The position numbers and the translations under genes were made by a program. A DNA stretch of 62,546 bases, filler included, from Stramenopiles sp. TOSAG23-6 (taxonomy: Eukaryota): the NCBI GenBank assembly GCA_900128565.1. It is 6 parts of 6 records of this genome, joined end to end, with 100 filler letters (N's around TTAATTAATTAA, not from the genome) between each part and the next. Parts side by side here need not be neighbours in the genome. Positions count along the whole stretch, not along the records: positions 24,465 to 36,592 come from LT636217.1; 5 more parts are not named here. One strand, 5' to 3'. Position 1 is the stretch's first letter; every line of letters begins with the position of its first letter. Below, piece by piece: positions 3,001 through 61,141 of the stretch. The notes beneath the pieces were generated by a model, which was given only the letters and a program-made list of their open reading frames with translations, was not told the origin of the DNA and made no database searches.

Positions 3001-4400
3001 TTTCTACAGATGCTGCATGTAAAAGTCGTAATTTACAGATTCGAACGTATGAAGTAATCCCAATGACTAAAACGATGGGTGTTTTACAATGGATATCAGA
3101 TAGTGTTCCGCTAAAGAGTGGAATAGAAGAAAGTATATTTCAATCCTTGAAAAGGCAAAATGTATTAAAAAAAGTGTCTCGTCATCGTCAAAATAGTAGA
3201 AAAAAACAAATTTTACAGAAATATGAGTTAACCAATTTGGAATGTGTAGGATTGCGTATACAAAATAATTTCTTAGCTACAAAGAAGAAATTTGGCCACC
3301 CTTTTGATCCAAAGACATATATTAAACTTATGGAATTTGGACAAGTCAAGGATTGTATTTCAAATTTCAATAATTGTGTAGACGATGTATGTTTTATTTT
3401 TTTTCAAATTCCAATTTGTTTTCGTACGAAATTTTGTACTACCACGAGATTTATTGCGACAAATTCTTTTTGATCTCACCAAAACACCAGAAGGCTTTCT
3501 AGCAATTCGAAAGAATTTTGCACAAACATTTGCAACATTTAGCATTGCTTCCTATATATTAGGTATAGGTGACCGACATTTAGCAAATTTTTTATTGGAC
3601 AAAACCAATGGATCGTGCTGTGGTATAGATTTTGGGTATTCTTTTGGTATTGGTTGTACGTTGTCCACTTTAATTTCATTTTTCATGCAAAATGTCGTAC
3701 CTAACAAAAAAAAACATTTTTTTGAATCTGAAGGTTTCTATGATTTTAGTAATATACCTAACAATTCCTAACAATACCTAACAAATGTCAAACGTAAAAT
3801 ATATATTTTCACAATAAATGCACTCTACCTGTACCTGAACTGACTCCTTTTCGTCTCACTCCACAATTTACGAATTTATTTCGCCCATTGGACTCGAAAA
3901 GTTTATTAAGTCAGTCAATGGTTGTAACTCTAGATGCATTACAACGAAATCGTTTGGAATTACTAAATATTATGGATGTTTTTGTCCAAGAACCACTCAT
4001 TGATTGGANAATTTCTGCTTCAAAAAGTAAACAAACTGAATCCTTACCATCATCTGTATTAAATATTTTGTCTAATAGTTCTAATAATTCTAATAGAAAT
4101 ATTGAGGATAGTTGGTATCCACGCAAAAAAATTGCCACGGCGGAGCTAAAGTTATTAAAAGGAAATCCATGTAAAATCATGATTGAACACGAAATACGTG
4201 GTCAATTACATCCATTAGCACGTAAACAACAGGATAAATATGAAGAATGTATTTGGGGAAATGAAAATTGCTCACGTCGAAATGTAAAACATAAAGATTT
4301 TTGTCCTGATGTTGAAACACAAGTGAAATATCTCATCGAAATGGCATCAGATCCAAATGTTCTTGTTCGACAATATGCAGGTTTTTCTCCATGGGTATAA
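59..4400 (+). CDS. PRKDC: DNA-dependent protein kinase catalytic subunit (PIKK), 3' part, 5'-truncated; exons ~59-469, 569-1294, 1389-1671, 1781-3386, ~3436-3655, 3820-4400
   Basis: Motifs MNSKQLPKRL, YLVKGGEDLRLDQRIE, ILGIGDRHLANFL, GIDFGYSFG, LPVPELTPFRLT, MDVFVQEPLIDW and a FATC end (DPNVLVRQYAGFSPWV*). Frames join when the repeat introns are removed. Confidence 0.9.
470..568 (+). mobile_element. Introner-like intron, GT...TT (or AT...AC if shifted 2 nt)
   Basis: GTATGT start and family core. Removing 99 nt joins EEG-C-IDTIG. Confidence 0.8.
1295..1388 (+). mobile_element. Introner-like intron, GT...AT
   Basis: GG|GTATGT...CACAATAAAT|GT joins YVA-G-VTKIG. Confidence 0.85.
1672..1780 (+). 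mobile_element. Introner-like intron, GT...AT
   Basis: AT|GTATGT...CCAAAATACAT|C joins ESH-I-ETSL. Confidence 0.85.
3387..3435 (+). mobile_element. Truncated introner-like intron lacking CTAAC and the 3' half
   Basis: GTATGT...TTCGTACGAAATTTT runs straight into exon VLPRDLLRQ. Confidence 0.65.
3656..3819 (+). mobile_element. Introner-like intron, GT...AT, with four CCTAACAA copies
   Basis: Removal gives SFGIGCTLPVPELTPFRLT, the conserved PIKK motif. Confidence 0.9.
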
Positions 4401-12132: not shown

Positions 12133-12232
12133 NNNNNNNNNNNNNNNNNNNNNNNNNNNNNNNNNNNNNNNNNNNNTTAATTAATTAANNNNNNNNNNNN
12201 NNNNNNNNNNNNNNNNNNNNNNNNNNNNNNNN
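12133..12232. other. Artificial contig linker (N-TTAATTAATTAA-N)
   Basis: 100-nt spacer with stops in all frames; same design occurs five times. Confidence 0.97.
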
Positions 12233-19021: not shown

Positions 19022-20768
<1,747 letters not shown>

Positions 20769-22230: not shown

Positions 22231-23381
22231 TTACACTTCAGATCGTTTCTGGTGTTTTATGCACCAGGAAATTGGTTTCAGAAGAATAGCCACGCCAGCA
22301 GATGTTGGTCAAAACCGCAGAATACTCAGTAGTGAACTATTAATGATACCCGTTATAAATGTAGTTTCGTGGGTGCCTTTGAAACATTCTTTGATTGAAA
22401 TTGTGTCGTTCCTTTTAAAACCACAATCATTGATAAATTCCCAAAGTGCGACTAGATAAAATATAAATACAACCTTGTATGGTATTGCAGGAACGGCACC
22501 GCCTCTGAAATTCCACACCAAGCGAGTTGATAAAACTCCAAGAACTGACGTCGGAGAAGCCCCCCAGAGAACAAAGAGAGAAATATCAATAAACAAAAAA
22601 ACACTTAGTATTAGAACAACATACCCTAACTGACTAGATTCCCCTGTGACACCAAATAAGAGTGCTAAACAAAGGATTAGGGTATGGAAGCAGCTCATGG
22701 CACGGAAAACATTAGCATATACATTGATATGAAAGCAATACCACTTATACTGAGACCCTGGAACGATACAGTATTTTCGGAAAATATTTCAAAAATTTCA
22801 AAATTGTTAGGTACAAAATTTTCTATTGAAAAAAAAAAACGGATTGAAAAATTCATCAAAAAAGCGTACAAGTATTTTGGCTTCTCTTTGTGTAAAATCC
22901 TATTATTCATAGACCAAGGCACACGATCCGTTTCATCACTGATTAGTTTTGATAATTCACCAGAACGATGTAAGCGTTGTATTTCTTCCTCTCCACCAAG
23001 GTACATCCCCTTTATATAAACCACAGGAAAGGTCAAAACTGGAAGTCCTAAAATTTTCTTTAGTGCAGCTCGATATGCAGGCGGGGTACCGACAATAAGT
23101 TTGGGGTTCAAATCATATTCTTCACGTAGTAGAGATTTAGCCCGCTCGCAGAATCCACATCCTTCTTTTTCAATAACTACAACGTCATTTCTTTCTATTG
23201 AAATTTGTAAGTCATTTTGAGCTTCGAGTGTATCTGCGGAGTCTACGAATATTGTACACTTATACTCTTCCAAGTACGATACTATATCTGACTTTACATC
23301 AGAAAGAAATCGTGTAAAATTATTCCTATTAGACATATCAGTCACATCATCTGATGACATAATAGATCCATACAATGTCAT
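22231..23381 (-). CDS. Glutaredoxin (CGFC) fused to a multi-pass membrane domain (DUF4395-like); ends at TGA 22309-22311, or at TAA 22231-22233 if the TGA is Sec
   Basis: KEGCGFCERAK and TFPVVYIKGMYLGG. The frame joins the hydrophobic ORF after intron removal. Confidence 0.7.
22769..22869 (-). mobile_element. Introner-like intron, GT...TG (GT...AT if 3 nt longer)
   Basis: TT|GTACGC...GTACCTAAC...GAAAATACTG|TATC. Confidence 0.75.
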
Positions 23382-24364: not shown

Positions 24365-24464
24365 NNNNNNNNNNNNNNNNNNNNNNNNNNNNNNNNNNNN
24401 NNNNNNNNTTAATTAATTAANNNNNNNNNNNNNNNNNNNNNNNNNNNNNNNNNNNNNNNNNNNN
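24365..24464. other. Artificial contig linker
   Basis: N-TTAATTAATTAA-N. Confidence 0.97.
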
Positions 24465-24573
24465 ATGTATTTTGAAAAAATATTTCAAAAAAAATTCTAA
24501 AAAATTTGTTAGGTACAAAATTTACTATAAAAAAAAATTCGATTTTTTTGTTAAAAAAAAAAATAAAACCTAC

Positions 24574-25123
24574 TTTTTGAATCTTGGATAATGACTTCTA
24601 AATCGGACAGACCTGTATAGTGAAACAAATAATGTAAAACATTTAAAATTTTGTGACAACTAAAATTCTTAGGTACAAAATTTCGTATGAAACCAAAAAA
24701 AATAAATAAATTTGAAATTCATGATGAAATCATACACAATTCAAACACTAAATGGAGTCTCTCTTTGTGTGAAAAAATATCTAGTAGTGATATTATATTG
24801 GGGTGTGGTAGTAATTGAAATTCCTTTAGTAATTTGATTTCACGAAGTGTTACTACGCCTACACCTTCAGCTGTATTTTCCATACGCATTTTCTTTACAG
24901 CTACTTGAGTTCCAGAATGTTCATTATCTGTTGCCAAATAAACCGTCCCAAATGTTCCTTTTCCCAGTTCTTTTCCCTTTGTATATCTATGCCATCCTAC
25001 TTTTTGTGTACTTACATTTATATTTGATGTAAGTGTAGAACTCACATGTGTAGATGAAAGTGTACATGCTTTTTTTAAGGTTTTTGAATCAGTCAAGCCA
25101 ACGTTTTTTCGTTTTGTAGACAT
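24574..25123 (-). CDS. Mirror copy of CDK7 exons 1-2
   Basis: Reverse complement of 28070-28619; the ORF translations are identical. Confidence 0.7.
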
Positions 25124-26798
25124 GGTGGTTGAAATTGTACTCTAAAGAGTGTACGTAGTGTTGAACACTGTTCGATGAACGATTTGCCAAGCTAATCTAT
25201 ACCGTATCACAACGCTTGGATATATATTCAATACTTTATTTATATTTGAGCAAGTCAATCACTGAAAAACACTATTGTTATTATTATTATACTCTGTTTT
25301 TTTTTAGTATACGTAGTGTGCGAGGTGTAGTCAATGATAGTGAGAGTACTTGATTCGCACTTGATTCCTTGACTACGACTTTCTAACCCTAACCCTAAAC
25401 ACCAAACACAAGCAACAACACTCCATGGATTTGGTTTTAAAATTGCGGATTTCGTGTATACTTTCGAAAGTTGAAAAACGACAAATAAAAACCATTAGTA
25501 TTATATCTTGAAAAACGTATCTCATTTTTCATTCTTTTCAAATTACAGTTGTTTATTGCTTCATAATAAAACTAATTTGGGATAATTTCTCATTTTTCAT
25601 TCTTTTCAAATTACAGCTAGTTGACCAGCTAGTTGAACCAGGCTTTCAACAAATGATCTTGTAAATCATATATATGATTTTATTCAAAAAATGTACATCA
25701 GGTATGTACCAACTAAATATAGCTACTTATTATATAGAACAAGATGTCGTATCTATATGTATATATGATACGTATTTTGATGATAATAATACTAATAATG
25801 GTTATTCGATTTCTATATTGGATACGATTTCTATAATACCGTATATTTTAAATCAGTACCGGGTGTACGCCTAGGAGGGAATAGATTTTAATATAAATAA
25901 AGACATTTTAAAATCAAAATTGTAAAACATTTTTACTCAAAAAATAATTATTACACTTCATATGTACATTCACCCGTTACCTGGTTCCAATAGAAAGCCA
26001 GTGAATTCGTGTTTGTATTAATCACACTCACCCACAAATTTTGTTTTTTGGATTGTCTTTTTTTTTGTCTAGGGTTAGGGGTAGTAGAATCATTGATTTC
26101 GTGTCGTTCAGAATCATTTATGTTTTTCCTTGTATTGTTTTTATTATTATTCAAAATACGTAAATTCTGCTCTTCATCTATTTCATCTCTTGTGCGTATT
26201 TTAAGTTGAGAAAAATGTGTCATATCATCAAAATGTTCAACAGTACTAGGGTTAGGGTTGGAATTTTTTTCAATATCATCATTATCATTCAATACATCAA
26301 TCATATGATGATTTTCAATATTTTCAACAATTTCAATATTTTCATCATCAGCATCATCATCATAATCATCATAATCATTATAACCATCAGTCATTATTTT
26401 TTTCAGCAAATAATTTAACAATTGTTAAATGAAATTTGAGAAATAAATTACTTCCACATCCTTGACTCAATTCATCATGAATTGTACAAAAATATTTCGA
26501 AAAAATTTTATATTTTTGTTAGGTATGAAATTTCGTATGAAAAAAAAAAAAAAAAAAAAATAAAAAAAAAAAAAAAAATTTAAAAAAAAATAAAAATTTT
26601 TATTTTTTTTTAAATTTTTTTTTTTTTTTTTATTTTTTTTTTTTTTTTTTTTTCATACGAAATTTCATACCTAACAAAAATATAAAATTTTTTCGAAATA
26701 TTTTTGTACAATTCATGATGAATTGAGTCAAGGATGTGGAAGTAATTTATTTCTCAAATTTCATTTAACAATTGTTAAATTATTTGCTGAAAAAAATA

Positions 26799-27242
26799 AT
26801 GACTGATGGTTATAATGATTATGATGATTATGATGATGATGCTGATGATGAAAATATTGAAATTGTTGAAAATATTGAAAATCATCATATGATTGATGTA
26901 TTGAATGATAATGATGATATTGAAAAAAATTCCAACCCTAACCCTAGTACTGTTGAACATTTTGATGATATGACACATTTTTCTCAACTTAAAATACGCA
27001 CAAGAGATGAAATAGATGAAGAGCAGAATTTACGTATTTTGAATAATAATAAAAACAATACAAGGAAAAACATAAATGATTCTGAACGACACGAAATCAA
27101 TGATTCTACTACCCCTAACCCTAGACAAAAAAAAAGACAATCCAAAAAACAAAATTTGTGGGTGAGTGTGATTAATACAAACACGAATTCACTGGCTTTC
27201 TATTGGAACCAGGTAACGGGTGAATGTACATATGAAGTGTAA
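26799..27242 (+). CDS. Acidic low-complexity ORF with a C-terminal WW-like domain (mirrored at 25951-26394)
   Basis: LWVSVINTNTNSLAFYWNQVTGECTYEV*. Confidence 0.55.
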   Translation: MTDGYNDYDDYDDDADDENIEIVENIENHHMIDVLNDNDDIEKNSNPNPSTVEHFDDMTHFSQLKIRTRDEIDEEQNLRILNNNKNNTRKNINDSERHEINDSTTPNPRQKKRQSKKQNLWVSVINTNTNSLAFYWNQVTGECTYEV

Positions 27243-28069
27243 TAATTATTTTTTGAGTAAAAATGTTTTACAATTTTGATTTTAAAATGTCTTTATTTAT
27301 ATTAAAATCTATTCCCTCCTAGGCGTACACCCGGTACTGATTTAAAATATACGGTATTATAGAAATCGTATCCAATATAGAAATCGAATAACCATTATTA
27401 GTATTATTATCATCAAAATACGTATCATATATACATATAGATACGACATCTTGTTCTATATAATAAGTAGCTATATTTAGTTGGTACATACCTGATGTAC
27501 ATTTTTTGAATAAAATCATATATATGATTTACAAGATCATTTGTTGAAAGCCTGGTTCAACTAGCTGGTCAACTAGCTGTAATTTGAAAAGAATGAAAAA
27601 TGAGAAATTATCCCAAATTAGTTTTATTATGAAGCAATAAACAACTGTAATTTGAAAAGAATGAAAAATGAGATACGTTTTTCAAGATATAATACTAATG
27701 GTTTTTATTTGTCGTTTTTCAACTTTCGAAAGTATACACGAAATCCGCAATTTTAAAACCAAATCCATGGAGTGTTGTTGCTTGTGTTTGGTGTTTAGGG
27801 TTAGGGTTAGAAAGTCGTAGTCAAGGAATCAAGTGCGAATCAAGTACTCTCACTATCATTGACTACACCTCGCACACTACGTATACTAAAAAAAAACAGA
27901 GTATAATAATAATAACAATAGTGTTTTTCAGTGATTGACTTGCTCAAATATAAATAAAGTATTGAATATATATCCAAGCGTTGTGATACGGTATAGATTA
28001 GCTTGGCAAATCGTTCATCGAACAGTGTTCAACACTACGTACACTCTTTAGAGTACAATTTCAACCACC

Positions 28070-30109
28070 ATGTCTACAAAACGAAAAAACGTTGGCTTGA
28101 CTGATTCAAAAACCTTAAAAAAAGCATGTACACTTTCATCTACACATGTGAGTTCTACACTTACATCAAATATAAATGTAAGTACACAAAAAGTAGGATG
28201 GCATAGATATACAAAGGGAAAAGAACTGGGAAAAGGAACATTTGGGACGGTTTATTTGGCAACAGATAATGAACATTCTGGAACTCAAGTAGCTGTAAAG
28301 AAAATGCGTATGGAAAATACAGCTGAAGGTGTAGGCGTAGTAACACTTCGTGAAATCAAATTACTAAAGGAATTTCAATTACTACCACACCCCAATATAA
28401 TATCACTACTAGATATTTTTTCACACAAAGAGAGACTCCATTTAGTGTTTGAATTGTGTATGATTTCATCATGAATTTCAAATTTATTTATTTTTTTTGG
28501 TTTCATACGAAATTTTGTACCTAAGAATTTTAGTTGTCACAAAATTTTAAATGTTTTACATTATTTGTTTCACTATACAGGTCTGTCCGATTTAGAAGTC
28601 ATTATCCAAGATTCAAAAAGTAGGTTTTATTTTTTTTTTTAACAAAAAAATCGAATTTTTTTTTATAGTAAATTTTGTACCTAACAAATTTTTTAGAATT
28701 TTTTTTGAAATATTTTTTCAAAATACATCACCACTTTCACCAAGTGATACAAAAACATATATGCTTCATATTCTACGGTCAGTCTCACATTGTCATAATA
28801 ATTGGATTATGCATGTATGTTTTTTTTTTTTTTTTTTTAAATTTTTTTTTGTATGAATTTTTTTTTCGTACGAAATTTTGTACCTAACAAATTTTCAAAA
28901 TTTTTTTTTTTGAAATATTTTTCCGAAATACATCGAGATTTAAAACCAAATAATTTTTTTCTTGGTGTTGACCATCAACTAAAGTTGGGTGATTTTGGTG
29001 CAGCCAAGGAATATGTATGTACTCATAATGAACACACACGAAATATTTTGAATAAAGATTATTTTTGTGTGAAATTTGTGAAATTTTTGAAATTTTTGAA
29101 ATTTGAAAAAAAAAAAAAAAAAAAAAAAATTTTGACCAATTTTTAATCTGTACATAAATTTCACAATACATGCATCTCCTGAACGACAATATCATAATGT
29201 AATGGTGACTATATGGTATCGTCCTCCTGAATTACTGTTTGGTTCAAGAAATTATGGTGTTGGTGTTGACATGTGGTCTATTGGTTGCATTTTTGCTGAA
29301 TTATTACTGAAAAAACCTTTTTTAGCAGGTCAAAATGTTTGTTTTTTTTCTCAATTTTTTTTTTTTCGTAGGTAATTTTGTACCTAACAAATTTTCAAAA
29401 TTTTTTTTTTTGAATTTTTGTTCAAAATATTTATATTTATTATGAACCTTTTCAAAGTTTTTTTTNTTTTATTTTTTTTTGGTATGAAATTTTGTACCTA
29501 ACAAAACCCAATATATAGACAAAAAAAAATATTTTTTTACAAAAAATGAATTAGATCAACTAGGAAAAATGTATGTTTTTTTTTTTTTCAAATTCAAAGT
29601 TTTTTTTCGTACGAAATTTTGTACCTAACAAAAAAAAATTTCAAATATTTTTCCAAAATACATATTTCATTATTTAGGAACACCAACTGAAGCCATTTGG
29701 CCCGGTATGACGTCATTACCATCATATATTGGTTTTACACCATGCAAAGCACCACCACTAAAATCATTATTTATTGGAGCATCCAGCGCAGCTGTTGATC
29801 TTATATCTAAATTACTCATGTACGCTTTCATCGTTTTTAATTTTTTTTTTTTTTTTTAAATTTTTTTTTTTTTCAATTTTTTTTTTCAATTTTTTTAATT
29901 TTTTTTTTTTTTTTTTTCATACGAAATTTTGTACCTAACAAAAAAATAAAAAAAAAATTTCAAATATTTTTTTTCAACATAGTTATGATCCTTCGAAGCG
30001 TATTTCTGCTAAAGAGGCGTTACGTCATAAATATTTCACAGAAGGTGTTCAACCAACACAACCAAAAAACTTAGCAGCAGCAGTGAAATTATCATCTAAA
30101 AGGAAATAA
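28070..30109 (+). CDS. CDK7: Cyclin-dependent kinase 7 (CAK/CDKD)-like; exons 28070-28457, 28581-28619, 28729-28814, 28934-29014, 29172-29336, 29548-29570, 29664-29819, 29983-30109
   Basis: Spliced product [85 protein letters not shown]. Confidence 0.9.
28458..28580 (+). mobile_element. Introner-like intron, GT...AG
   Basis: Family core; joins FEL-C-LSDL. Confidence 0.9.
28620..28728 (+). mobile_element. Introner-like intron, GT...AT
   Basis: AA|GTAGGT...AAAATACAT|CA joins DSK-T-PLSPSD. Confidence 0.88.
28815..28933 (+). mobile_element. Introner-like intron, GT...AT, inside the catalytic HRD motif
   Basis: CAT|GTATGT...AAATACAT|CGAGAT gives H-RDLKP. Confidence 0.92.
29015..29171 (+). mobile_element. 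Intron GT...AT with a degenerate family core
   Basis: TAT|GTATGT...CACAATACAT|GCA gives KEY-ASPER. Confidence 0.85.
29337..29547 (+). mobile_element. Introner-like intron, GT...AT, with two core copies
   Basis: Joins AGQN-ELDQL. Confidence 0.85.
29571..29663 (+). mobile_element. Introner-like intron, GT...AT
   Basis: Joins [10 protein letters not shown]. Confidence 0.9.
29820..29982 (+). mobile_element. Introner-like intron, GT...AG
   Basis: Joins KLL-I-YDPSKR. Confidence 0.85.
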
Positions 30110-30451
30110 GAGAGATTTTAATTAGACAATAATTTGTAGGTATGAAAAATAAAAAATCTTAAGATTTCGTGTTTTTTTCGGGGTTTTCTTCGGAGATTTT
30201 TTTTCAAAATTCAAAAATATTCAAAAAAATTCAAAAATATTCAAAAACAACAACACATATAGCAGCACAGCAGCAGCACTGAAGGCAAGGGAGGCTCCAC
30301 CTTTTCTATTTCTGTGTAATAAACACTAGCTCTACAACATTTACGTACATAGATATGATATACTAACTAAGTGTATCAAGTATATTTGTGATATTTTGTC
30401 TTTGTAACATAACAAAACCTCCGAAAAACTCGTGAGTAGTAAATTTAAATT

Positions 30452-30490
<39 letters not shown>

Positions 30491-30581
30491 ACCAACAACA
30501 ATACCAACAACACTATTTAAACACACTATTTAAACAAACAAACAAACAAACAGACACAAAAACAAACACGAAATCAAAGCG

Positions 30582-30833
30582 ATGGTGTATACTACTATTA
30601 TTTTCTTGTGTTTGTTTTCCGTTCTATCGGTTCTATCGTCAATGGCTGAAGTTATTGAAGCTTTTGAAGCTATTGAACCTATTTCTATATCAAATGCTCG
30701 AGGTGGTCTCTACACCATTCGTTCTGTTCCAATAGATGTTACAAGTCTTACAAGGAGTAGTAGTAGTATAGGAATGAATAAGAAGAAGAGTAATACAAAA
30801 CATTCAATGTTTGTTTTTTTTTCATCATACATT

Positions 30834-30865
<32 letters not shown>

Positions 30866-32118
30866 GTAAAAAAATTTTGTTTTTTTTTTTTTTTTTAAAC
30901 ATTTTAAATTTTTTTTTTTTTTTTTTTTTTTTTTGGTAAAAACATTTCGATTTTTTTTTTCTTTGTGTCATAAAAAAATTTTAATCCAACATTTTTGTAA
31001 AAAAAAGAAATATTTCAGTACAAAATAGGGTTCATAAAAATCTAATACGGTTCAAACAAAAAGATTTTGATACAATTGTTGAAAATCCTATAACAAATCC
31101 TATAACAACAATTGTATCTACACAATATCAAAATGTTCAAAATGTAAAACAATTTAAACAATTGGATAGTATAAGTAATGATAAATTTGTCGTTGGTACG
31201 GATCATGACATTTCAAATCGTGTTTCTTTACTTGAAACGAATATGTATGTTTTTATTTTTATTTTATTTTTTACAAAAAAATTGAATTTTTTTTTTCGTA
31301 CGAAATTTTGTACCTAACGATTTTTTTTTTTTTTTTTTACAAAAAAATCGAATTTTTTTTTTTATAAAAATTTTGTACCTAACAAAATTTTAGGTTTTTT
31401 TTGAAATATTTTTCCAAAATAAATTGTTCAACACAGACAAATAATTGATACTATAACTACAAAGCTTCTGAAAATTATGAATATAAAAGATTCTTATGAA
31501 CTCAAAGCAATGTATAATTGTGTATTATATGAAGAGTTTTGTAATAATGTGGAAGAAAAAATTGAATTTATTTTGACAACTTTTGAAAAACAACAAAAAC
31601 ATATGAAATATAATGTAGAAAAAGAAGCAAAAAAAATATCAAATGAAACTTTCAAATTAAACATGAAAGATTTTGATGATGATATTATTGATGATGATGA
31701 TGTTGTTGATGATGATGATGATGATGATGTTGTTGATGATATTGTTGATGATATTGTTGATGATATTATTAATGATGTTGTTGTTGATGATATTATTGAT
31801 GATGATGATATTGTTGATGATGATGATGATGATGATATTATTGATGATATTATTGATGATGATGATAATGATGATGATGATAATAATAATAAAAATGAAA
31901 AAAAAAAGTTTCAAAGAGGAAATTTTTTTGATTTTAGTGATGGATTTGCAAAAAAAAAAAAAAAAAAAGATCATTGGAACAATCATGAATCAGTATTTGA
32001 TGAAAATGTTTTTGGTGAATTTGGATCACAAAACATAAAGACAGTGTTTGATGAAGATGTCTTTGGTGAATTTGGTCAATCTAACTCTAGTACGAAATTG
32101 AATTCACAATATTTATAA
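30582..32118 (+). CDS. Putative secreted protein with an Asp-rich tract; exons 30582-30808, 31029-31244, 31425-32118
   Basis: Hydrophobic N-terminus. The frame is continuous after removing introns 30809-31028 (GT-AG) and 31245-31424 (GT-AT). Confidence 0.65.
31245..31424 (+). mobile_element. Introner-like intron, GT...AT, with two core copies
   Basis: Two GTACCTAAC motifs; ends CCAAAATAAAT. Confidence 0.8.
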
Positions 32119-32314
32119 CAAAAATTTTGACACTCAAAAAAAAAGTCATATAATGAAAACACAATCTTTATTCACAATATTGTACATTTGATATAATAAA
32201 AAAAAACATTTCAAAAAAGGTATTTTTTTATTTTTTTTAAACGAAATTTTTTTTTTCATAGTAAATTTCGTACCAAAGAAATTGTACAAAAAAAAAATTG
32301 AAAAAAAAAAAAAT

Positions 32315-32735
32315 TTAAATCGCACGGCCAGCATGACAAGGACAACACCAACAACCCCAATTAGGATCAGGACAATGAGGACCTTGTTGGAGTATTTTTT
32401 CATTTTTGACTCGTTGAATTTCATTTGGGTTAAGTGCAAAGACAAAAATCGATAAAGATCCATCATATAAAATAGAAAAATATTTTTTTTTTTTAGAATT
32501 TGTTAGGTACTATGAATATAAAGTGTAAAAAAAAAAATTAATTTTCGAAAAAAAAAATTTCAAAAAAATTTCAAAAAAATTTGAAAATAAAACAAACATT
32601 CCATTGATGGCCTCCATTTCTCATTTGTTTAAAACTAAATCCCTTCACAAAAATTCCTTTTGGTTGTAAATACTCATTAAATTCACGAAACCAATCATGT
32701 AAAGCAAGCTGAAGAGGATCACATTTTGACCATGG
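32315..32735 (-). CDS. Last two exons (32735-32598, 32464-32315) of an unknown protein with a Cys-rich tail (WGCWCCPCH)
   Basis: Open frame across GT-AT intron 32465-32597. Confidence 0.55.
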
Positions 32736-32838
32736 ATTGTATTTTAGAAAAATATTTCAAAAAAAAAAAATTAAAAATTGTTAGGTACAAAATTTCGTAC
32801 GAAAAAAAAATCGAATTTGAAAAAAAATATTTACATAC
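32736..32838 (-). mobile_element. Introner-like intron, GT...AT/AA
   Basis: GTATGT...TTCGTACGAAATTTTGTACCTAAC...AAAATACAAT. Confidence 0.8.
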
Positions 32839-33120
32839 GTATTCACCCCAACCTCCAACACCATCAGCCACGCCGATAACACGACCACAAGATGACATCA
32901 GATAAGAATCTTCCGACTTCCCTTTTTTTGATGGATGTGCTAAATTTATCGCACTTGCCTTGAGTATAGAAGGGGTGCGTTGCATTTTTATAGTACTGAA
33001 ATTTTTCGTTTTACATAATGAACTAAAGGATCTTAAATATATGGGTGAAAATGAGAAATTAGGCTTCAACCCACGTGAAGTATATCTAGAAAAAAAGGCA
33101 GAGTATTGTATCCGAGACAT
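32839..33120 (-). CDS. PTC7-type PP2C phosphatase, first exon only, with a mitochondrial-like presequence
   Basis: HPSKKGKSEDSY...VIGVADGVGGW. Confidence 0.75.
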
Positions 33121-33579
33121 TCCCAGTATCGCAACTATTTAGAGCTGTAAAATATTGATCAACGATTGTATTGATCAATTGGTGTTCAATCAATATTGGA
33201 CACACAATATTTCAAGAGAGAAAGATACGTATAGTACAATTTTTGAAATTGTACGTTTGTGTTTACGTCATTCCCGCGCCAAATCCTAAAATTTTGCTCC
33301 TGCAAAAAAATACACGAAATATTCACGAAGAATTTGCTGAATAACACGTGTCACGAAGAATGCATGTGATCGATTCTAATCATTCTATCATTCTATCGAT
33401 TCTGATCATTCTGATCTATCACAACAATCGAATCGAACGTACAAGTAAGTCGACGACACAAACACACAACAAGTTCAACAACTGTATTTTTTTCGCTGGC
33501 TAATTCTTTGTTACATTTACCTTGGTTGCTCTTCTATCTGAGAAATCTTCATTATTCGTTTATACAATAGTTCTTAGCA

Positions 33580-33960
33580 ATGGGTAAAGGTGGTATCGAT
33601 TACAAGGGTCAAGAACTAGCTGAAAACTTGCACCAAATTCTGGTTATCTCATTTTCAGCTGTTGGTTTTTGTATTGGTTGGTATAAACAAAGTTTCCGAC
33701 ACACATTTATTGGATGGCTTATTGGTTCTGTTTTAGCTTGCATTTTTTGTATACCTGATTGGGGTTTCTACAATAGAAATCCAGTCAAGTGGTTACTGAC
33801 TGTTCCCCCAATTCCAAAGAAACGGGGCAGTGAAACAGCGTCATCGAATATTGGTATTTACGTAGGAGTTGGAATTGCTGTAGTTGCATTTTTTTTACTT
33901 GTTGTAATATTTGCTGCACGATCTGGTGCTTTTGGACCCCAATACCGATTTATAATTTAA
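33580..33960 (+). CDS. SPCS1: Signal peptidase complex subunit SPC12/SPCS1
   Basis: IDYKGQELAE...IPDWGFYNRNPVKWL. Confidence 0.9.
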   Translation: MGKGGIDYKGQELAENLHQILVISFSAVGFCIGWYKQSFRHTFIGWLIGSVLACIFCIPDWGFYNRNPVKWLLTVPPIPKKRGSETASSNIGIYVGVGIAVVAFFLLVVIFAARSGAFGPQYRFII

Positions 33961-34020
33961 AAAATAAATCTATTTTTGTTCATAATATAATTTAATTGAT
34001 TTTGGAAAACTTTTAAAAAT

Positions 34021-36552
34021 TCAACAGAAAGGACGACGCCGACGAGATCGACAGTCTTTGCACGTTTTTGGTTCAAACCAGCCTTTTGATGCATATTTAA
34101 CTTGATCCACACTCGACCAAATGAAAATTCTATTGCATACTCTGCACATTAACTCTTTTTCCGGGTGTAATTGATTAAACATCCACTCGTGATAGGTTTT
34201 GTCATGCTCTTCATTTGTATAACTATATCCCGAATATTGCCGCCTATTACTATATCTATTTGAAGTACTTTCGTTGCGCGAATGTCTCTTATTTAGTTTC
34301 TTCTCCATATCGTACTCTAATCTTGTACTAGCACACTTAAGGCACTCATATGCAGACTGAATCAACTGAAATGCTTCAGCTGATCTCGGTAACCGATTTT
34401 TGTCTGGATGCAATAACAACGCAAGCTTTCGGAATGTCAACTTTATTTTTGATTGTTGAGCATCATCTGGAATCCCAAGAACCTCATAATGACATCTAGC
34501 AAATTTCTTAACATCAGAATTACGCGAATTTATTTGCCTCTGTGGCAATGAAAGTATTCTATCTAAATGTTCCATTTGTATTTTTTGTCGTCCGGTTTTT
34601 GTAGAGACATTCTTCTTGTAGTTTTGTCCTTTATCTGGAGAGATTGGTTTCGATGTCGTTTTGTTTCTCTGTCGAGCCTCCTTCAGCTTTCTTTCTTCTG
34701 CCCTTTTCATCGCATACGCTGCTGAAGCTGCAGAGGCTGCCATATTTTGTGCAGCTTTTCGAGCTCTATGTGCAGCAGCTGCTTCTCTTGCTTCTTGTTC
34801 TCTCCGCTCTCGTTCGCGTTTTTTCTTCAAAGCGGCAGCTTTTTCCAGTGCAATTCTTGTACGTCTTCGCATTCTTTCTTGCATTCTTTCATTGAGCTTT
34901 TGCTCTTCAATTTCTGCTTGACGAATTGCAGCTTCTGTAGCTTCCTTCATCTGCCTTATTTTCTCATCATCATCATCTTTACCTTCATTTGATTTCTTTT
35001 CTTTCATCCGACTTCGAAAAATCTTTGCAACATTTTTATACTTTCGCCTGGAAGAAATTGAACTAGCTTTAGCATTTCGTGTCTCTTTACAAGCCTTCAT
35101 AAACTTATTTGATCTGCCGAAAGTAAATGTTTTTTTTTTATCTTTCACTTTATTTTCTTCTTCTTCGGTATTTTCTTTCCGAATAAACATTCCTTCAAAA
35201 GATTTTGTAAATTGATCTACATTACTCATATTTATATTTTTTCTACTTTTTGTACATTTTTGCCTATTTTTGGTCTTCCTATTTCGTGTTGTACTTTTTG
35301 GACTTTTTTTGTTCCGTTTCTTTTGACCAACGGAAAAAACTGGTTTTGTATCACTATATGTAGGATTTTGAAAAAACGTATTTTCCTGATGAAATACAAA
35401 AGGTTCTGTATTTTCTTGTTTTTTTTTATACAAGTTTTTGTACTTAAATGTTTTAGTTGATACATTCTTGAAGTGTTCATATTTATCTGTGTCACTAAAT
35501 ACAAAAGGATTATCTGGATTTTGTTCCACTTCATTCGCATTTGAAAAATACACTGGAGATGTATACATCGGAGATTTTCTATTTCTAATTTTACTATTAT
35601 TATTCATTTTCTTCTTACTCTTTTTTGTACCTTTTCTATTCGGCATCTTTTTTCCTATTGAAAATCCAAATGATGAATCTTTAAATATATTGTCTTGAAT
35701 ATCATTTTCTGTATGCGATGTTGTAGAATTCATATATTTAGGAGACTTTGGTGTAAAACGTGTAGACTCTGTTCTGGTTGAAGTTTCACTACATTTCGCT
35801 TTTTCTATATGATTTACTTCTTCTTCATCATCAGAGCTACCTGAGTAGTAATTAAATATCCTCACAAATGGATGTTCGTCTTCAGTATTATGATTAACAG
35901 ATGTGTATTCGTCTTCAGTATTATTATTAACAAATGGATGTTCGTCTTCAGTATTATAATCCATTCCAGATGAGACAGACATGGCATCTTCCCAGTGTTC
36001 CTTTTGACTATTTTCAATACTAGCAGAATTATTTTGGGATTCTTCTGAACTTTNNNNNNNNNNNNNNNNNNNNNNNNNNNNNNNNNNNNNNNNNNNNNNN
36101 NNNNNNNNNNNNNNNNNNNNNNNNNNNNNNNNNNNNNNNNNNNNNNNNNNNNNNNNNNNNNNNNNNNNNNNNNNNNNNNNNNNNNNNNNNNNNNNNNNNN
36201 NNNNNNNNNNNNNNNNNNNNNNNNNNNNNNNNNNNNNNNNNNNNNNNNNAAAACTATCTGGTCCAGCAAAAGATGCATTTACTTCTGTTGAGGTTTCTTT
36301 TAAGAAAGTACTACTAGGAGCTAGCTTAGAGGGTTGTTTGTGGCAACTCTGAAACATTGGTGTAGTCGTGTCACTGGAAAATACAGGTGTCACCATTTCC
36401 GAGCTTTTACACGGCATTTGAGAGGAATTATCAGTACGAAAATTTTTCATATTACTTTGCGGGTCAATAGAGTCTTCACTTTCGAAACTATTGAAGCTAT
36501 CGCCCCGAGGACGGGGTAACGGTGTAAACCTTGCAATTAAAGGGATTGGCAT
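34021..36552 (-). CDS. DnaJ-domain protein with a C-terminal CxxC...CxxC zinc ribbon (spans N gap 36054-36249)
   Basis: HYEVLGI...FRKLALLLHPDKN and LMCRVCNRIF...KGWFEPKTCKDCR. Confidence 0.8.
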   Translation of the reverse strand: MPIPLIARFTPLPRPRGDSFNSFESEDSIDPQSNMKNFRTDNSSQMPCKSSEMVTPVFSSDTTTPMFQSCHKQPSKLAPSSTFLKETSTEVNASFAGPDSFXXXXXXXXXXXXXXXXXXXXXXXXXXXXXXXXXXXXXXXXXXXXXXXXXXXXXXXXXXXXXXXXXXSSEESQNNSASIENSQKEHWEDAMSVSSGMDYNTEDEHPFVNNNTEDEYTSVNHNTEDEHPFVRIFNYYSGSSDDEEEVNHIEKAKCSETSTRTESTRFTPKSPKYMNSTTSHTENDIQDNIFKDSSFGFSIGKKMPNRKGTKKSKKKMNNNSKIRNRKSPMYTSPVYFSNANEVEQNPDNPFVFSDTDKYEHFKNVSTKTFKYKNLYKKKQENTEPFVFHQENTFFQNPTYSDTKPVFSVGQKKRNKKSPKSTTRNRKTKNRQKCTKSRKNINMSNVDQFTKSFEGMFIRKENTEEEENKVKDKKKTFTFGRSNKFMKACKETRNAKASSISSRRKYKNVAKIFRSRMKEKKSNEGKDDDDEKIRQMKEATEAAIRQAEIEEQKLNERMQERMRRRTRIALEKAAALKKKRERERREQEAREAAAAHRARKAAQNMAASAASAAYAMKRAEERKLKEARQRNKTTSKPISPDKGQNYKKNVSTKTGRQKIQMEHLDRILSLPQRQINSRNSDVKKFARCHYEVLGIPDDAQQSKIKLTFRKLALLLHPDKNRLPRSAEAFQLIQSAYECLKCASTRLEYDMEKKLNKRHSRNESTSNRYSNRRQYSGYSYTNEEHDKTYHEWMFNQLHPEKELMCRVCNRIFIWSSVDQVKYASKGWFEPKTCKDCRSRRRRPFC

Positions 36553-36592: not shown

Positions 36593-36692
36593 NNNNNNNN
36601 NNNNNNNNNNNNNNNNNNNNNNNNNNNNNNNNNNNNTTAATTAATTAANNNNNNNNNNNNNNNNNNNNNNNNNNNNNNNNNNNNNNNNNNNN
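36593..36692. other. Artificial contig linker
   Basis: N-TTAATTAATTAA-N. Confidence 0.97.
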
Positions 36693-36878: not shown

Positions 36879-37160
36879 TCAACGTTGAACTTTGCATCCT
36901 CTATAACTATTATTCTTTACACAAAATTTCAACATTTCAGACCAACATTTCAGACCAATATTGATCATCTGCTAATGTAAATGGATTACCTACAACAATT
37001 GTTAGCAATTTTGCACGAGTTAACACAACTTGTGTTTTAGAAAAATATTTAATTTGTTTTTTGTTAGGTACAAAATTAAATACGATTTTCTTTTTTGAAA
37101 TTGAAATGATAAAATCGTACAATAAATTTACGAGGATTTCCCATTAAACCAAGTCCCATT
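36879..37160 (-). pseudogene. MOV10/UPF1-type SF1 RNA helicase C-terminal fragment
   Basis: LGLMGNPRKFI-VVLTRAKLLTIVVGNP...DQYWSEML. A 13-nt duplication shifts the frame away from KFCVKNNSYRGC. Confidence 0.7.
37030..37120 (-). mobile_element. Introner-like intron, GT...AA
   Basis: GTACGA...TTTTGTACCTAAC...AAAACACAA|GTT. Confidence 0.75.
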
Positions 37161-48817: not shown

Positions 48818-48917
48818 NNNNNNNNNNNNNNNNNNNNNNNNNNNNNNNNNNNNNNNNNNNNTTAATTAATTAANNNNNNNNNNNNNNNNNNNNNNNNNNN
48901 NNNNNNNNNNNNNNNNN
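48818..48917. other. Artificial contig linker
   Basis: N-TTAATTAATTAA-N. Confidence 0.97.
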
Positions 48918-54304: not shown

Positions 54305-57300
54305 ATGCGTGTTTCTTTGGTAATAGTATCATGTTTGATCATCATGGCACACGCTAAAATGATGAACCATAAAGACAAACAAGCGATAAAGGATCAGCAA
54401 AAACAAGATTTGGCAGACGCAAAAAAAATACAAGAAGAATTTAAAAAAGCACAAGAGAAAAAAGCAGCTGATGCGAAGGCGGACGATAAAAAGAAACTAG
54501 AGGACGATAAGGCTAAAAAGACGGCGGAAAGCGAAAAACGTCGGAATGACATGGAAGCTATATTTAATACAATGAAAGATAAGAATACTAAAGAGGAAAC
54601 TGCAAAAAAAGGACTTGCTGACGACTTTAAGGCTTGCAAAAAGTCCATTAAACAGTGTGAAGATGATTTAAAAGCCAAAATGAAGCAAGATACTGGTAAA
54701 AGCGACATGAGTGATGCAACTTTTAGACGATATCTAAATAATGCTGCCGAACGTGCTTCTGCTACAGAATTGTCCAACAACCAAGGTAAATCATTCGAAG
54801 AACAATCAGACGCATTTAAAATAAAGTTAAAAGAATCAGGTGGTAAGGATTTGACTGATGAATTTGAAACCAGAGAACTAATGATAAAGGCCTCTAAAGA
54901 TGCAGGGGCATTAAAATTCAAGGATTGTAAAAAGAATGGAAACGATGAAAAAACATGTCGAAACGAAGCATTGACTGAAATGCAAAAAACTCACGTTTCA
55001 GGAAGTAAAACGGAAGATATGGCTGACGTCTTTAAGGCTTTAAGACGACAAGCCGATAAGGATGTTGCGGAATCACTTGAAAACACTAGCGGCTTAACTA
55101 AATTAGAACGCATTGAAGTTGCAAAAGAGGCTATATCTGGTGCGGAGGGTAAAAATATTAAGGATATCACAATGTCTGAAGCACTAGCCGCGATTGAAAG
55201 GGGAACGGAAAATGCGACATTGGGTGAGTTTTATGAGTGTATGAACGAAAAAATAAAAACTAAAAAACAATGTACTGCTTTAGCAAAAACCAAAGCACAA
55301 AAGGCTGGTGGAGAATCAAGTTATACTGACCTTGAGGTACAGGAATTTATGAAAAAGGGAATGAGAAACAAGGTTAATGAAGCAGTGAAAGCATCAGAAA
55401 CTACTGACGGTAGTGTTACAAAAGAGAACTTGGAAGAAAGAATAAAAGGAGAACTGAAAATTTTTCTTGGTGCAGACCCTACACATACGCAAATTCGTCA
55501 ATTCAAAAAAGAGGCAGGGAAAAAGGAGTCTACTGAAGTTATGGACGCTTGTATGGAAGCAGAAAACAATCGTGCGAATTGTAAAAGAAGGGCCACATCA
55601 GACTTAAATAAGTATGTTGCATCAACCCAGGAAGTGGGTAGAGCTTTTCTCGATGGCGCATCATCCGCGGCTTTAAGTTCTCAGTACGTTTTCTTCATGA
55701 ATTTTAAATTTATTAATTTTTGTACCAAAATTTCGTAAGATTGTTTTTAACCAATATCAAATGTAAAACATATTTTTTCACAATATATGCGAAATTGTAT
55801 GACATTAGCAGCAGGAGATACAGATGAACAGAAAATATGCCGAATTTTGTTCCGAGACGAACTCCAAAAGAGAAGGGGAAAAGACTCCCTCACTGTGTAT
55901 GAGATCGAAGAGGCAATAGTGTCTGCTGCAGAGCAAGATGTGAAAGAGTCTCTTGAAGCATATGTAGAAACTGAACAAAATCCGACAGTTGCTGGAAGTA
56001 GAAAAAATGTGAAGGATCGCCTTGCATTAACTCTTGGTCGTACAGTAACTGATGAATTTGCAGAATTTTACAGAAAGCAAAGTTCCCTGGTCGCTGCTGC
56101 AGATACACTTGGTCCTTGCATGGAAAATGCAAAAAACAAATCTGGTACAGAACTAACAAACCTTGAGAATACATGTATTACGCAGGCAAAAGATGCGGTG
56201 AGAAGGGCTCGTGGTGATAAGACTGCACCAAGTACAGTAGCATTACAAAAACTGATACAAGAAGCTGTTGAAGTTGAAACCGCAAAAGTGAAAGCTTCAT
56301 GTGGAGAAGATGAAAATGCTAACTGTAAGGGAAAAGAAGCCCGGCAGGAATTCGCAAACCAAGCCGCCAAAACGAAAGGAAAAGCTAGCATGACGGAGAA
56401 AGATTATTTGAAAGACCTAGTAAAAGGTAGTCATGTATCTTTTATTTTTTTCCAATTTCGAATTTATTTTTAGTACGAAATTTTGTACCTAACAAATTTT
56501 AGTTTTTTTTTTAAATATTTTTCCAAAATATATCGTTTGGTCAGTGATATTATCTCACAATGTCAAGAGGGAAATGAAGCTGATGGGGAAGCAGTTGATT
56601 GTACTGCAGGTCTCAAAGAGCATATGGGTAACTTGGGTGAAGATGCAACTGACAAGATGGCAACGCAAAGTGTCCAGCAATCTGCACCATATTGTGTTGA
56701 CGAAAAAATGAAAGTATGTGAGTCTCTTAGCAATTCACAATGTAATTCAAAACCAAACATAAAGAAGCATACTCAAATATGTTTAGGTAAGAATAAAGAC
56801 GATCCAGCTCTTGACGATGACACTGTACGTTTTCAAAATTGAATTTCGAATTGTTTTTGTACCAAATTTTGTACCTAACAAACTTTTACTAAAAATAATA
56901 TTTTTACAAAATACATGAAAGAATGATAAAAGAAGTTACTGCCATCGCTATGGAAGTCCTTATCAGTGGTTTTGAATATGAAAGCAGGCGTCGCTTAAAA
57001 AAAACTCCATCGGCTAAACGTCAAGAAAAAGAAAATGCTTTTAAATTGTCAACTGGGAAGACAGTTGGAGCTAATGGTGAAAATATCGGTTCGTACCAAA
57101 GCGCACATGACCGCGTCCTTGCTGCGGAAGCTGCAAGAGACGCAATGGCAAGAGCCAGGATGAGTGTTGAAGATGGTGGCTCGTCGGAGTCAACGGATGA
57201 AGAAAAAGAAGAAATGGCTCTTTTAGCCGAAAACGCTGTGGGTAAAACAAATAAATCAGATGTAAAGAAGCCTGAAGATGCTACAAATATGGAAAGGGAA

Positions 57301-61041: not shown

Positions 61042-61141
61042 NNNNNNNNNNNNNNNNNNNNNNNNNNNNNNNNNNNNNNNNNNNNTTAATTAATTAANNN
61101 NNNNNNNNNNNNNNNNNNNNNNNNNNNNNNNNNNNNNNNNN
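61042..61141. other. Artificial contig linker
   Basis: N-TTAATTAATTAA-N. Confidence 0.97.

Follow-up and report, generated by a model that had tools for sequence, protein, structure and literature searches.

The CDK7-like gene and its seven introns

The 62.5-kb stretch of DNA analysed here (hereafter the window) holds a predicted CDK7-like kinase gene (28070-30109) whose coding frame is interrupted seven times by copies of one short, repeated, transposon-like element, and the subject of this report is the way in which these copies, five of which end in AT, appear to be removed as introns. The gene is recognised by a Pfam Pkinase match on exon 1 (E = 8.7e-17) and by its best named protein matches, all entitled "cyclin-dependent kinase 7" (P0121, P0126, and P0154); the closest homologue, P0121, is a protein of 276 aa that carries this name at its source. 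Exact removal of the seven segments gives a joined frame of 354 aa, which aligns to P0121 with zero gaps at all seven junctions (82% identity on exon 5), and to the Capitella CDK7 (P0126) without gaps over the junction region. The internal exons measure, in order, 39, 86, 81, 165, 23, and 156 nt. This gap-free homology fixes the lengths of the excised segments to the nucleotide. All exons are intact, the catalytic motifs are present, and the gene is not a decaying one.

The interrupted region extends from 28458, the first base of intron 1, to 29982, the last base of intron 7. All seven introns start with GT, while their ends are AT in five cases and AG in two (Table 1). In intron 7, the ACAT end of the family is followed by an AG that the frame requires. 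Intron 3 sits exactly between the codon for the catalytic-loop His and the Arg-Asp codons, with CAT repeated at both its borders. There is not a single AG in its 119 nt; the nearest one ends 4 nt inside the next exon, and a cut there would call for a shifted donor and would abolish the HRD motif. A sequence-only reading of this locus had claimed that exact removal yields a gap-free CDK7-like kinase with a 23-nt exon (29548-29570), that five of the seven introns have AT ends and the other two AG ends, and that the intron in HRD has no AG near its 3' end; the alignment to P0121 and a recheck of the spans on the sequence bear out each of these claims, the last one for the whole intron. Within the activation segment (29172-29230, +) the CDK7-like kinase and P0121 both have a His at one position, which we take to be the site of the activating Thr in animal CDK7.

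Table 1. Coordinates of the CDK7-like gene, its introns, and other features in the window
Feature	Position	Strand	Basis
Predicted CDK7-like kinase gene, ATG 28070 to TAA 30107-30109	28070..30109	+	Pfam Pkinase, joined-frame alignment
CDK7 exons 1-4	28070-28457, 28581-28619, 28729-28814, 28934-29014	+	
CDK7 exons 5-8	29172-29336, 29548-29570, 29664-29819, 29983-30109	+	
Intron 1, 123 nt, GTATGA..TATACAG, GT..AG, family member	28458..28580	+	frame, homology
Intron 2, 109 nt, GTAGGT..ATACAT, GT..AT, upstream exon ends AA	28620..28728	+	homology
Intron 3, 119 nt, GTATGT..ATACAT, GT..AT, between H and RD codons	28815..28933	+	homology
Intron 4, 157 nt, GTATGT..ATACAT, GT..AT, at KEY|ASPER	29015..29171	+	homology
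Intron 5, 211 nt, GTTTGT..AAAAAT, GT..AT, at GQN|ELDQL	29337..29547	+	homology
Intron 6, 93 nt, GTATGT..ATACAT, GT..AT, at GK-I-FHYLG, after 23-nt exon	29571..29663	+	homology
Intron 7, 163 nt, GTACGC..ACATAG, GT..AG	29820..29982	+	homology
TTTGTACCTAAC block, branch-site-like, invariant in the family	28877..28888	+	copy within intron 3
Further TTTGTACCTAAC copies in CDK7	28514, 28674, 29377, 29491, 29618, 29928	+	
GT..AG intron of the neighbouring gene	30809..31028	+	RNA contig X2 record 9 joins 30808 to 31029
Two family introns, katanin p60 gene	19404-19313 and 19235-19144	-	removal gives a gap-free match to P0002
Perfect palindrome, 2132 nt, no spacer	24465-26596 = reverse complement of 26597-28728		mirrors 5' part of the CDK7 gene

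A repeated intron element

All seven interruptions are copies of one family of about 100 nt that resembles a miniature inverted-repeat transposable element (MITE) and has the general layout GTAYGT ... AAATTTTGTACCTAAC ... AATACAT. At up to one mismatch, the window contains 30 matches to the 12-mer TTTGTACCTAAC where 0.49 would be expected; two of the 30 are mirror copies in a palindrome (Table 1). A hidden Markov model (HMM) built from an alignment of 20 element copies finds 53 matches at E<=1 over ca. 61 kb of the window, and 40 at E<1e-3; three of the latter are mirror copies, which leaves 37 distinct loci. The consensus of the 20 copies runs GTAtGTtTT.., a T-rich stretch, cgTAcgAAATTTTGTACCTAAC, a variable stretch, and AAATATTTTTcCAaAATACAt. 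Conservation is strongest in the yeast-like donor, the TACTAAC-like block, and the 3' terminus (AAATATTTTTCCAAAATACAT), and is highest of all in the TTTGTACCTAAC block. Six CDK7 introns carry this branch-like block, 35-56 nt upstream of their 3' ends; intron 4 is a diverged copy with no HMM match and no TACCTAAC motif. The sequence-only reading had spoken of sibling copies, and the related introns are indeed real, but that a single transposon-like family runs through all the genes here had gone unrecognised. It is the spread of this family that mainly explains the seven interruptions of CDK7.

The ends of the element are inverted (GTAT and ATAC, with runs of T and A) and, joined with the flanking AT, make the palindrome ATACAT|GTAT. 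When folded as RNA, four of six introns form a terminal helix of 6-7 bp that includes the exonic AU, and two form none. That an RNA helix between the intron ends is the device that defines the cut finds no support as a general reading, in view of these two folds and of the mixed z-scores, and we take the helix as a footprint of the element ends rather than as an established splicing device.

Some copies depart from the simple form. Introns 29337-29547 (motifs at 29377 and 29491) and 31245-31424 (+) hold two tandem cores each, with two TACCTAAC blocks, which suggests that one copy inserted next to or into another, or that an internal duplication took place. A truncated element in the PIKK kinase gene (3387-3439, +) consists of the 5' half only and ends within the conserved GTAC; removal of its 53 nt fails to restore the frame, as 52 or 55 nt would, and it may have arisen by deletion or by a collapse in the assembly. 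A 22-mer of the element had no match in the viral_contigs or genome_contigs collections.

Introns of the family across the window

Our census comprises the 28 introns with both ends in the window. The diverged introns 29015-29171, 30809-31028, and 55684-55788 were included by their ends and frames; we set aside six copies truncated by contig ends or runs of N, three mirror copies, the truncated 3387-3439, the copies 26646-26712 and 32228-32285 of unclear context, 16956-16856, and the weak match 32510-32473. The start is GT in 26 of the 28 and AT in one, the remaining one being GA or GT according to the register chosen. The ends are AT (19), AG (4), TT (2), AA (2), and TG (1), so that 24 introns are without a terminal AG. 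Removal joins the longest flanking open frames in frame in 25 of 28 cases (expected 1/3, p = 1.2e-9), far more often than by chance. Two of the three misses are CDK7 introns next to short exons and are confirmed by homology; the third is 32838-32737 (-). All 28 introns lie on the sense strand of their host gene, and among the 40 HMM matches with E<1e-3 there is no antisense copy inside a coding frame. In-frame interruptions of the same kind occur in CDK7, katanin, the PIKK kinase, and other genes.

The katanin p60 gene offers an independent confirmation: with both introns taken out (Table 1), it aligns to a 68%-identical relative (P0002) without gaps. One of the two, 19235-19144 (-), shows a 10-nt direct repeat, ACAGGAATGT, across both borders instead of the usual 2 nt; it can be read as GA..AG or as GT..AT with an identical product. 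More generally, the upstream exon ends in AT in 16 of the 28 introns (background AT frequency 0.0995, p = 9e-10), and the downstream exon mostly begins with G. In 15 of 28 introns AT stands at both borders; the third base matches no more often than by chance. No empty insertion site was seen.

That the family exists, that its copies lie on the sense strand only, and that their lengths restore the frame exactly in conserved genes are matters of observation; the removal of AT-ended copies from RNA and the exact register of the cut are inferred. We propose that the seven interruptions would be spliceosomal introns born as copies of a short, non-autonomous, transposon-like element, or "introner". 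Each copy would bring its own signals, namely a yeast-like 5' site (GTAYGT), a branch-like AAATTTTGTACCTAAC, and the 3' terminus AAATATTTTTCCAAAATACAT. The element would usually have inserted after an exonic AT, leaving AT at both borders, and the pre-mRNA would be cut at the GT and at the element end, which is mostly AT rather than AG; the host spliceosome would then have to accept 3' ends other than AG. Borders other than GT-AG are needed to restore the protein, which places the introns in the non-canonical class. On balance, the probable explanation is a family of introners that are spliced out as introns, mostly with ends other than AG.

Register of the cut

Four of the five AT-ended CDK7 introns follow an exon that itself ends in AT, and for these the readings GT..AT, TG..CA, and AT..AC give an identical mRNA. 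Because the repeat of AT makes the registers equivalent there, the case for AT acceptors rests on the non-redundant copies. Intron 2 is the only discriminating one among the AT-ended CDK7 introns: a GT..AT cut would give TTCAAAAA|CACCAC and a Thr codon, and a cut shifted by 2 nt would give TTCAAA|ATCACC and a Ser codon; P0121 has Thr at this junction, as in the GT..AT product. At intron 1, the unshifted product has the Cys of the homologue, and the shifted product has Gly. Non-redundant junctions are also found in a glutaredoxin-domain gene (at 22869), in a helicase-like gene (at 37120), and in the gene at 14019.

An alternative is that the same introners are cut 2 nt to the left, as AT+GTATG...ATAC, which would make them AT..AC introns and the "AT acceptor" an artefact of the repeated AT. 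Such a register obeys the known rule of A at +1 and C at -1, is compatible with the 16 introns in which the exon ends in AT and both registers yield the same mRNA, and would account for the AC kept at positions -4/-3 in 20 of 28 copies, including copies that end in TT, AA, TG, and AG; at 470-568, moreover, the two registers differ by a synonymous Gly codon only. The shift, however, leaves 12 of the 28 with starts other than AT (three TT, two AA, and one each of GG, TG, AG, GT, AC, CA, and CT); it gives an AC end in 20 of 28 and an AT start in only 16, whereas in the unshifted register 26 of 28 start with GT. It also puts the conserved GTAYGT, which works as a donor signal in the unshifted register only, out of place. 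Failures of the shifted reading had been pointed out in the sequence-only reading at 28620 (AA..AC), 1295, 3656, 55684, and 56825; all five recur in our analysis, where the shifted starts at the last four are GG, TT, CA, and CT. Further, the shifted products of introns 1 and 2 disagree with the homologue (Gly for Cys and Ser for Thr), the 5' end departs from the consensus of U12-type introns, and at 35-56 nt from the 3' end the branch-like block is too distant. The GT..AT register is favoured by these comparisons as the probable one, and we regard the AT..AC register as unlikely. As to the claim that AT and AG acceptors are interchangeable and that this is not pseudogene decay, the intact exons and motifs bear out its second half; AT as the chemical acceptor is a putative reading, the registers being equivalent in four of the five AT-ended CDK7 introns.

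The family has some likeness to U12-type AT-AC introns: with the 2-nt shift, 13 of the 28 read AT..AC, three read AT..AA or AT..AT, and three copies start with GTATCT. Varied 3' dinucleotides are tolerated by U12-type introns. It is unlike them in its 5' consensus, GTAYGT, and in a branch-like block that is not close to the 3' end. A U12-type minor intron was thus considered and rejected as a candidate, the 5' ends being GTATGT, GTACGT, or GTATCT, and the TACCTAAC block lying 35-56 nt from the 3' end.

Public gene models and the remainder of the window

The window is a concatenation of several contigs, sorted by size and nearly equal (ca. 12.13 kb apiece), and the same linker (44 N + TTAATTAATTAA + 44 N) stands between them five times, at 12133-12232, 24365-24464, 36593-36692, 48818-48917, and 61042-61141. 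Because the contigs were joined artificially, neighbourhood across the linkers is meaningless. Several contigs break off within copies of the intron element. The sequence is eukaryotic and AT-rich (GC 0.25-0.40), and its large exons code for katanin p60, a PIKK-type kinase, a DnaJ protein, a PP-loop ATPase, ankyrin repeats, and others; an Rfam scan of the whole window found no RNA family. The 2132-nt palindrome (Table 1) sits at a contig start, directly after the linker 24365-24464, and its far end is the last base of CDK7 intron 2; it is probably a chimera of single-cell amplification or of assembly.

The katanin exon has its top protein match in a public protist proteome that bears the label GSMAST32, and CDK7 exon 5 is 100% identical to the GSMAST32 model P0122. 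This identity, together with the intron 5 bases that are translated in P0122, indicates that the window is the annotated GSMAST32 assembly sequence or nearly so. The host is presumably an uncultured marine stramenopile, MAST-3-like, the name MAST-3 being our reading of the GSMAST32 label. P0122 (window 29172-30106) counts 144 aa against 354 for the joined frame; its translation continues into the first bases of intron 5 and passes over the 23-nt exon. Likewise, the katanin model P0001 (window 19025-20729) includes translated intron sequence at one of the two introns and lacks nine residues at the other. At both genes, the public models drawn from this sequence splice the introns wrongly, and inferences from the proteome of this lineage are therefore compromised until its genes are annotated anew with the junctions given here. 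A search of metagenome contigs with P0121 for close orthologous loci returned 80 loci, of which the best has 52% identity and none is close, and none was used. In the sections consulted of the single-cell genome paper (PMC5778133), introns are mentioned in the methods only and splicing never; nor did our literature searches find such introns reported for MAST-3 or for other heterotrophic stramenopiles.

RNA evidence and competing explanations

The RNA evidence comes from seawater metatranscriptome contigs only, which cover parts of the stretch (shares 0.05-0.09). They were compared over 26600-36050, and what follows concerns the listed part, 32 of the 2762 pieces and 15 of the 42 joints; where there is no cover, this is uninformative. 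The only intron spliced among them is the GT..AG intron of the neighbouring gene (Table 1), which has family-like ends and no HMM match and is cut precisely where predicted. Within CDK7, X1 record 3 (29237-29387) begins in exon 5 and continues unspliced into intron 5, X3 record 17 (28907-29017) runs from intron 3 across exon 4 into intron 4, and X1 record 4 begins 8 nt upstream of exon 8. Loose contig ends start directly after ACAT at 28728 and 28933, which is the end of the repeat. In the poly(A) seawater metatranscriptomes, the summed contig depth reaches thousands over the element core (28496-29759) and 0-65 over the adjoining exons; a core depth as high as this points to many other copies. 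The RNA libraries contain many element-bearing, apparently unspliced sequences from the host or its relatives.

Several observations weigh against GT..AT introns. Among the RNA contig rows listed there is no AT junction, and the CDK7 pieces are colinear with the DNA and unspliced. The register is ambiguous in 16 of the 28 copies. A G at +1 combined with a T at -1 breaks the pairing rule for the first and last nucleotides of GT-AG and AT-AC introns. The terminal helix is weak, with z-scores from -3.3 to +0.25 over the six folds. Intron 52077-51976 (-) has ATACGT in place of GTACGT at its start and TT at its end, yet it joins open frames of 57 and 100 codons, in frame. In a PTC7/PP2C-like gene, the element of intron 32838-32737 (-) ends in ACAA and is out of frame there. 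The in-frame options over 32838-32731 (-) are ACAAT| (54-codon frame) or CCAT| five bases on (29-codon frame), and if the latter is correct, the cut follows the next CAT instead of falling at a fixed position. A protein search with the PTC7-like exon (P0241) for a transcript-derived sequence spanning the 32838-32737 junction found nothing, and Pfam and PDB searches with the alternative downstream frames of this gene were uninformative, their best result being a PP2C chain that exon 1 matches without significance (E = 1). In several of the non-AT exceptions (470-568, 22869-22769, and 32838-32737), AT or CAT also occurs in frame a few bases away, which is not significant, as AT makes up about 10%.

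The unspliced CDK7 contigs among the rows listed would also be expected if the elements were recent MITE insertions that are never removed, the genes here being inactivated copies and the functional ones residing elsewhere or in other cells; our analysis covers the window, and a second CDK7 copy may exist outside it. Against this stand the flanking frames, kept in 25 of 28 cases with two of the three misses rescued by homology, and the sense-strand placement of all 28 copies. The copies are mutually diverged, yet the exons are all intact in an AT-rich sequence. The pattern holds in every multi-exon conserved gene examined (CDK7, katanin, and PIKK), and CDK7 exon 5 matched just one protein of the GSMAST32 proteome. 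We consider unremoved insertions very unlikely.

A further possibility is a programmed excision of the elements from DNA, comparable to that of the TA-bounded internal eliminated sequences (IES) of ciliates, which would leave one flanking AT behind. Short, AT-rich elements in coding sequence, with inverted ends, a repeated border dinucleotide, and joined ends that form a palindrome, would suit such a process. Removal from DNA, though, has no need of the sense orientation that all 28 copies share, nor of conserved blocks that resemble a splice site and a branch site; the GT..AG intron of the neighbouring gene, with its family-like ends, is spliced out of RNA, and element-bearing contigs occur in RNA libraries. 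To our knowledge, there is no nuclear dualism in stramenopiles. Excision from DNA is hardly credible on these grounds.

Comparison with known systems

Henriet et al. 2019, as reviewed in PMC11282704, are reported to have described MITE-derived introns in Fritillaria borealis. According to the portions consulted of later sources (PMC11282704; 10.1101/2025.08.15.670264), these introns are dominated by AG-AC and AG-AT, with an exonic TAC repeat that forms the 3' site, and are spliced by an adapted major spliceosome for which divergent U2AF paralogues are documented. Like them, the family described here appears to be transposon-derived, has a 3' border that repeats the last bases of the exon (TAC there, AT or CAT here), and frequently ends in AT. 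It is unlike them in its 5' GT, as opposed to AG, and the host of the Fritillaria introns is an animal. The consulted part of PMC11282704 also mentions transposon-derived non-canonical introns in some dinoflagellates and euglenids.

For Amoebophrya, the sections consulted of Farhat et al. 2021 (PMC7789003) describe repeated introner families with inverted repeats, direct repeats at the borders, and borders other than GT-AG. The parallels are close: a marine protist, repeated introns with inverted ends and border repeats, and gene predictors that are defeated by them. Amoebophrya, however, is described there as having no dominant dinucleotide pair, and a component of U1 is reported missing, whereas the present family keeps its 5' GT, GTAYGT, and a TACTAAC-like block, and departs only at the 3' end, which is mostly AT. 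The Amoebophrya junctions rest on RNA-seq, those of the AT-ended copies here on sequence. Micromonas and Aureococcus, the latter itself a stramenopile, have canonical introners, as far as the consulted parts of PMC11282704 and PMC7789003 report. These are short, non-autonomous elements that have inverted ends and target duplications and produce introns on a genome scale, and our family appears to resemble them in this; they differ in that their splice sites are canonical, one being supplied by the duplication, where 24 of our 28 introns are without AG.

The intron family of the CDK7-like gene would add to the class of transposon-derived non-canonical introns known from Fritillaria and Amoebophrya. 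Beyond this, we propose only tentatively, and with some doubt, that the major spliceosome of a MAST-3-like lineage routinely uses GT..AT introns (about two thirds of our sample), in which a canonical GTAYGT donor and a TACTAAC-like branch site go with T as the last nucleotide instead of G. If so, the public gene models of the host would be systematically wrong, and one defined, non-canonical pair would break the rule on first and last nucleotides, in what would be the third independent eukaryotic lineage, and the first among stramenopiles, whose splice rules were re-set by a burst of transposons. If the AT ends are true acceptors, a lineage of free-living marine grazers for which single-cell genomes are the only source would join Fritillaria and Amoebophrya among those in which mobile elements have relaxed the rules of splicing, and, with donor and branch signals intact, the recognition of the 3' end would be singled out as the step that has changed.

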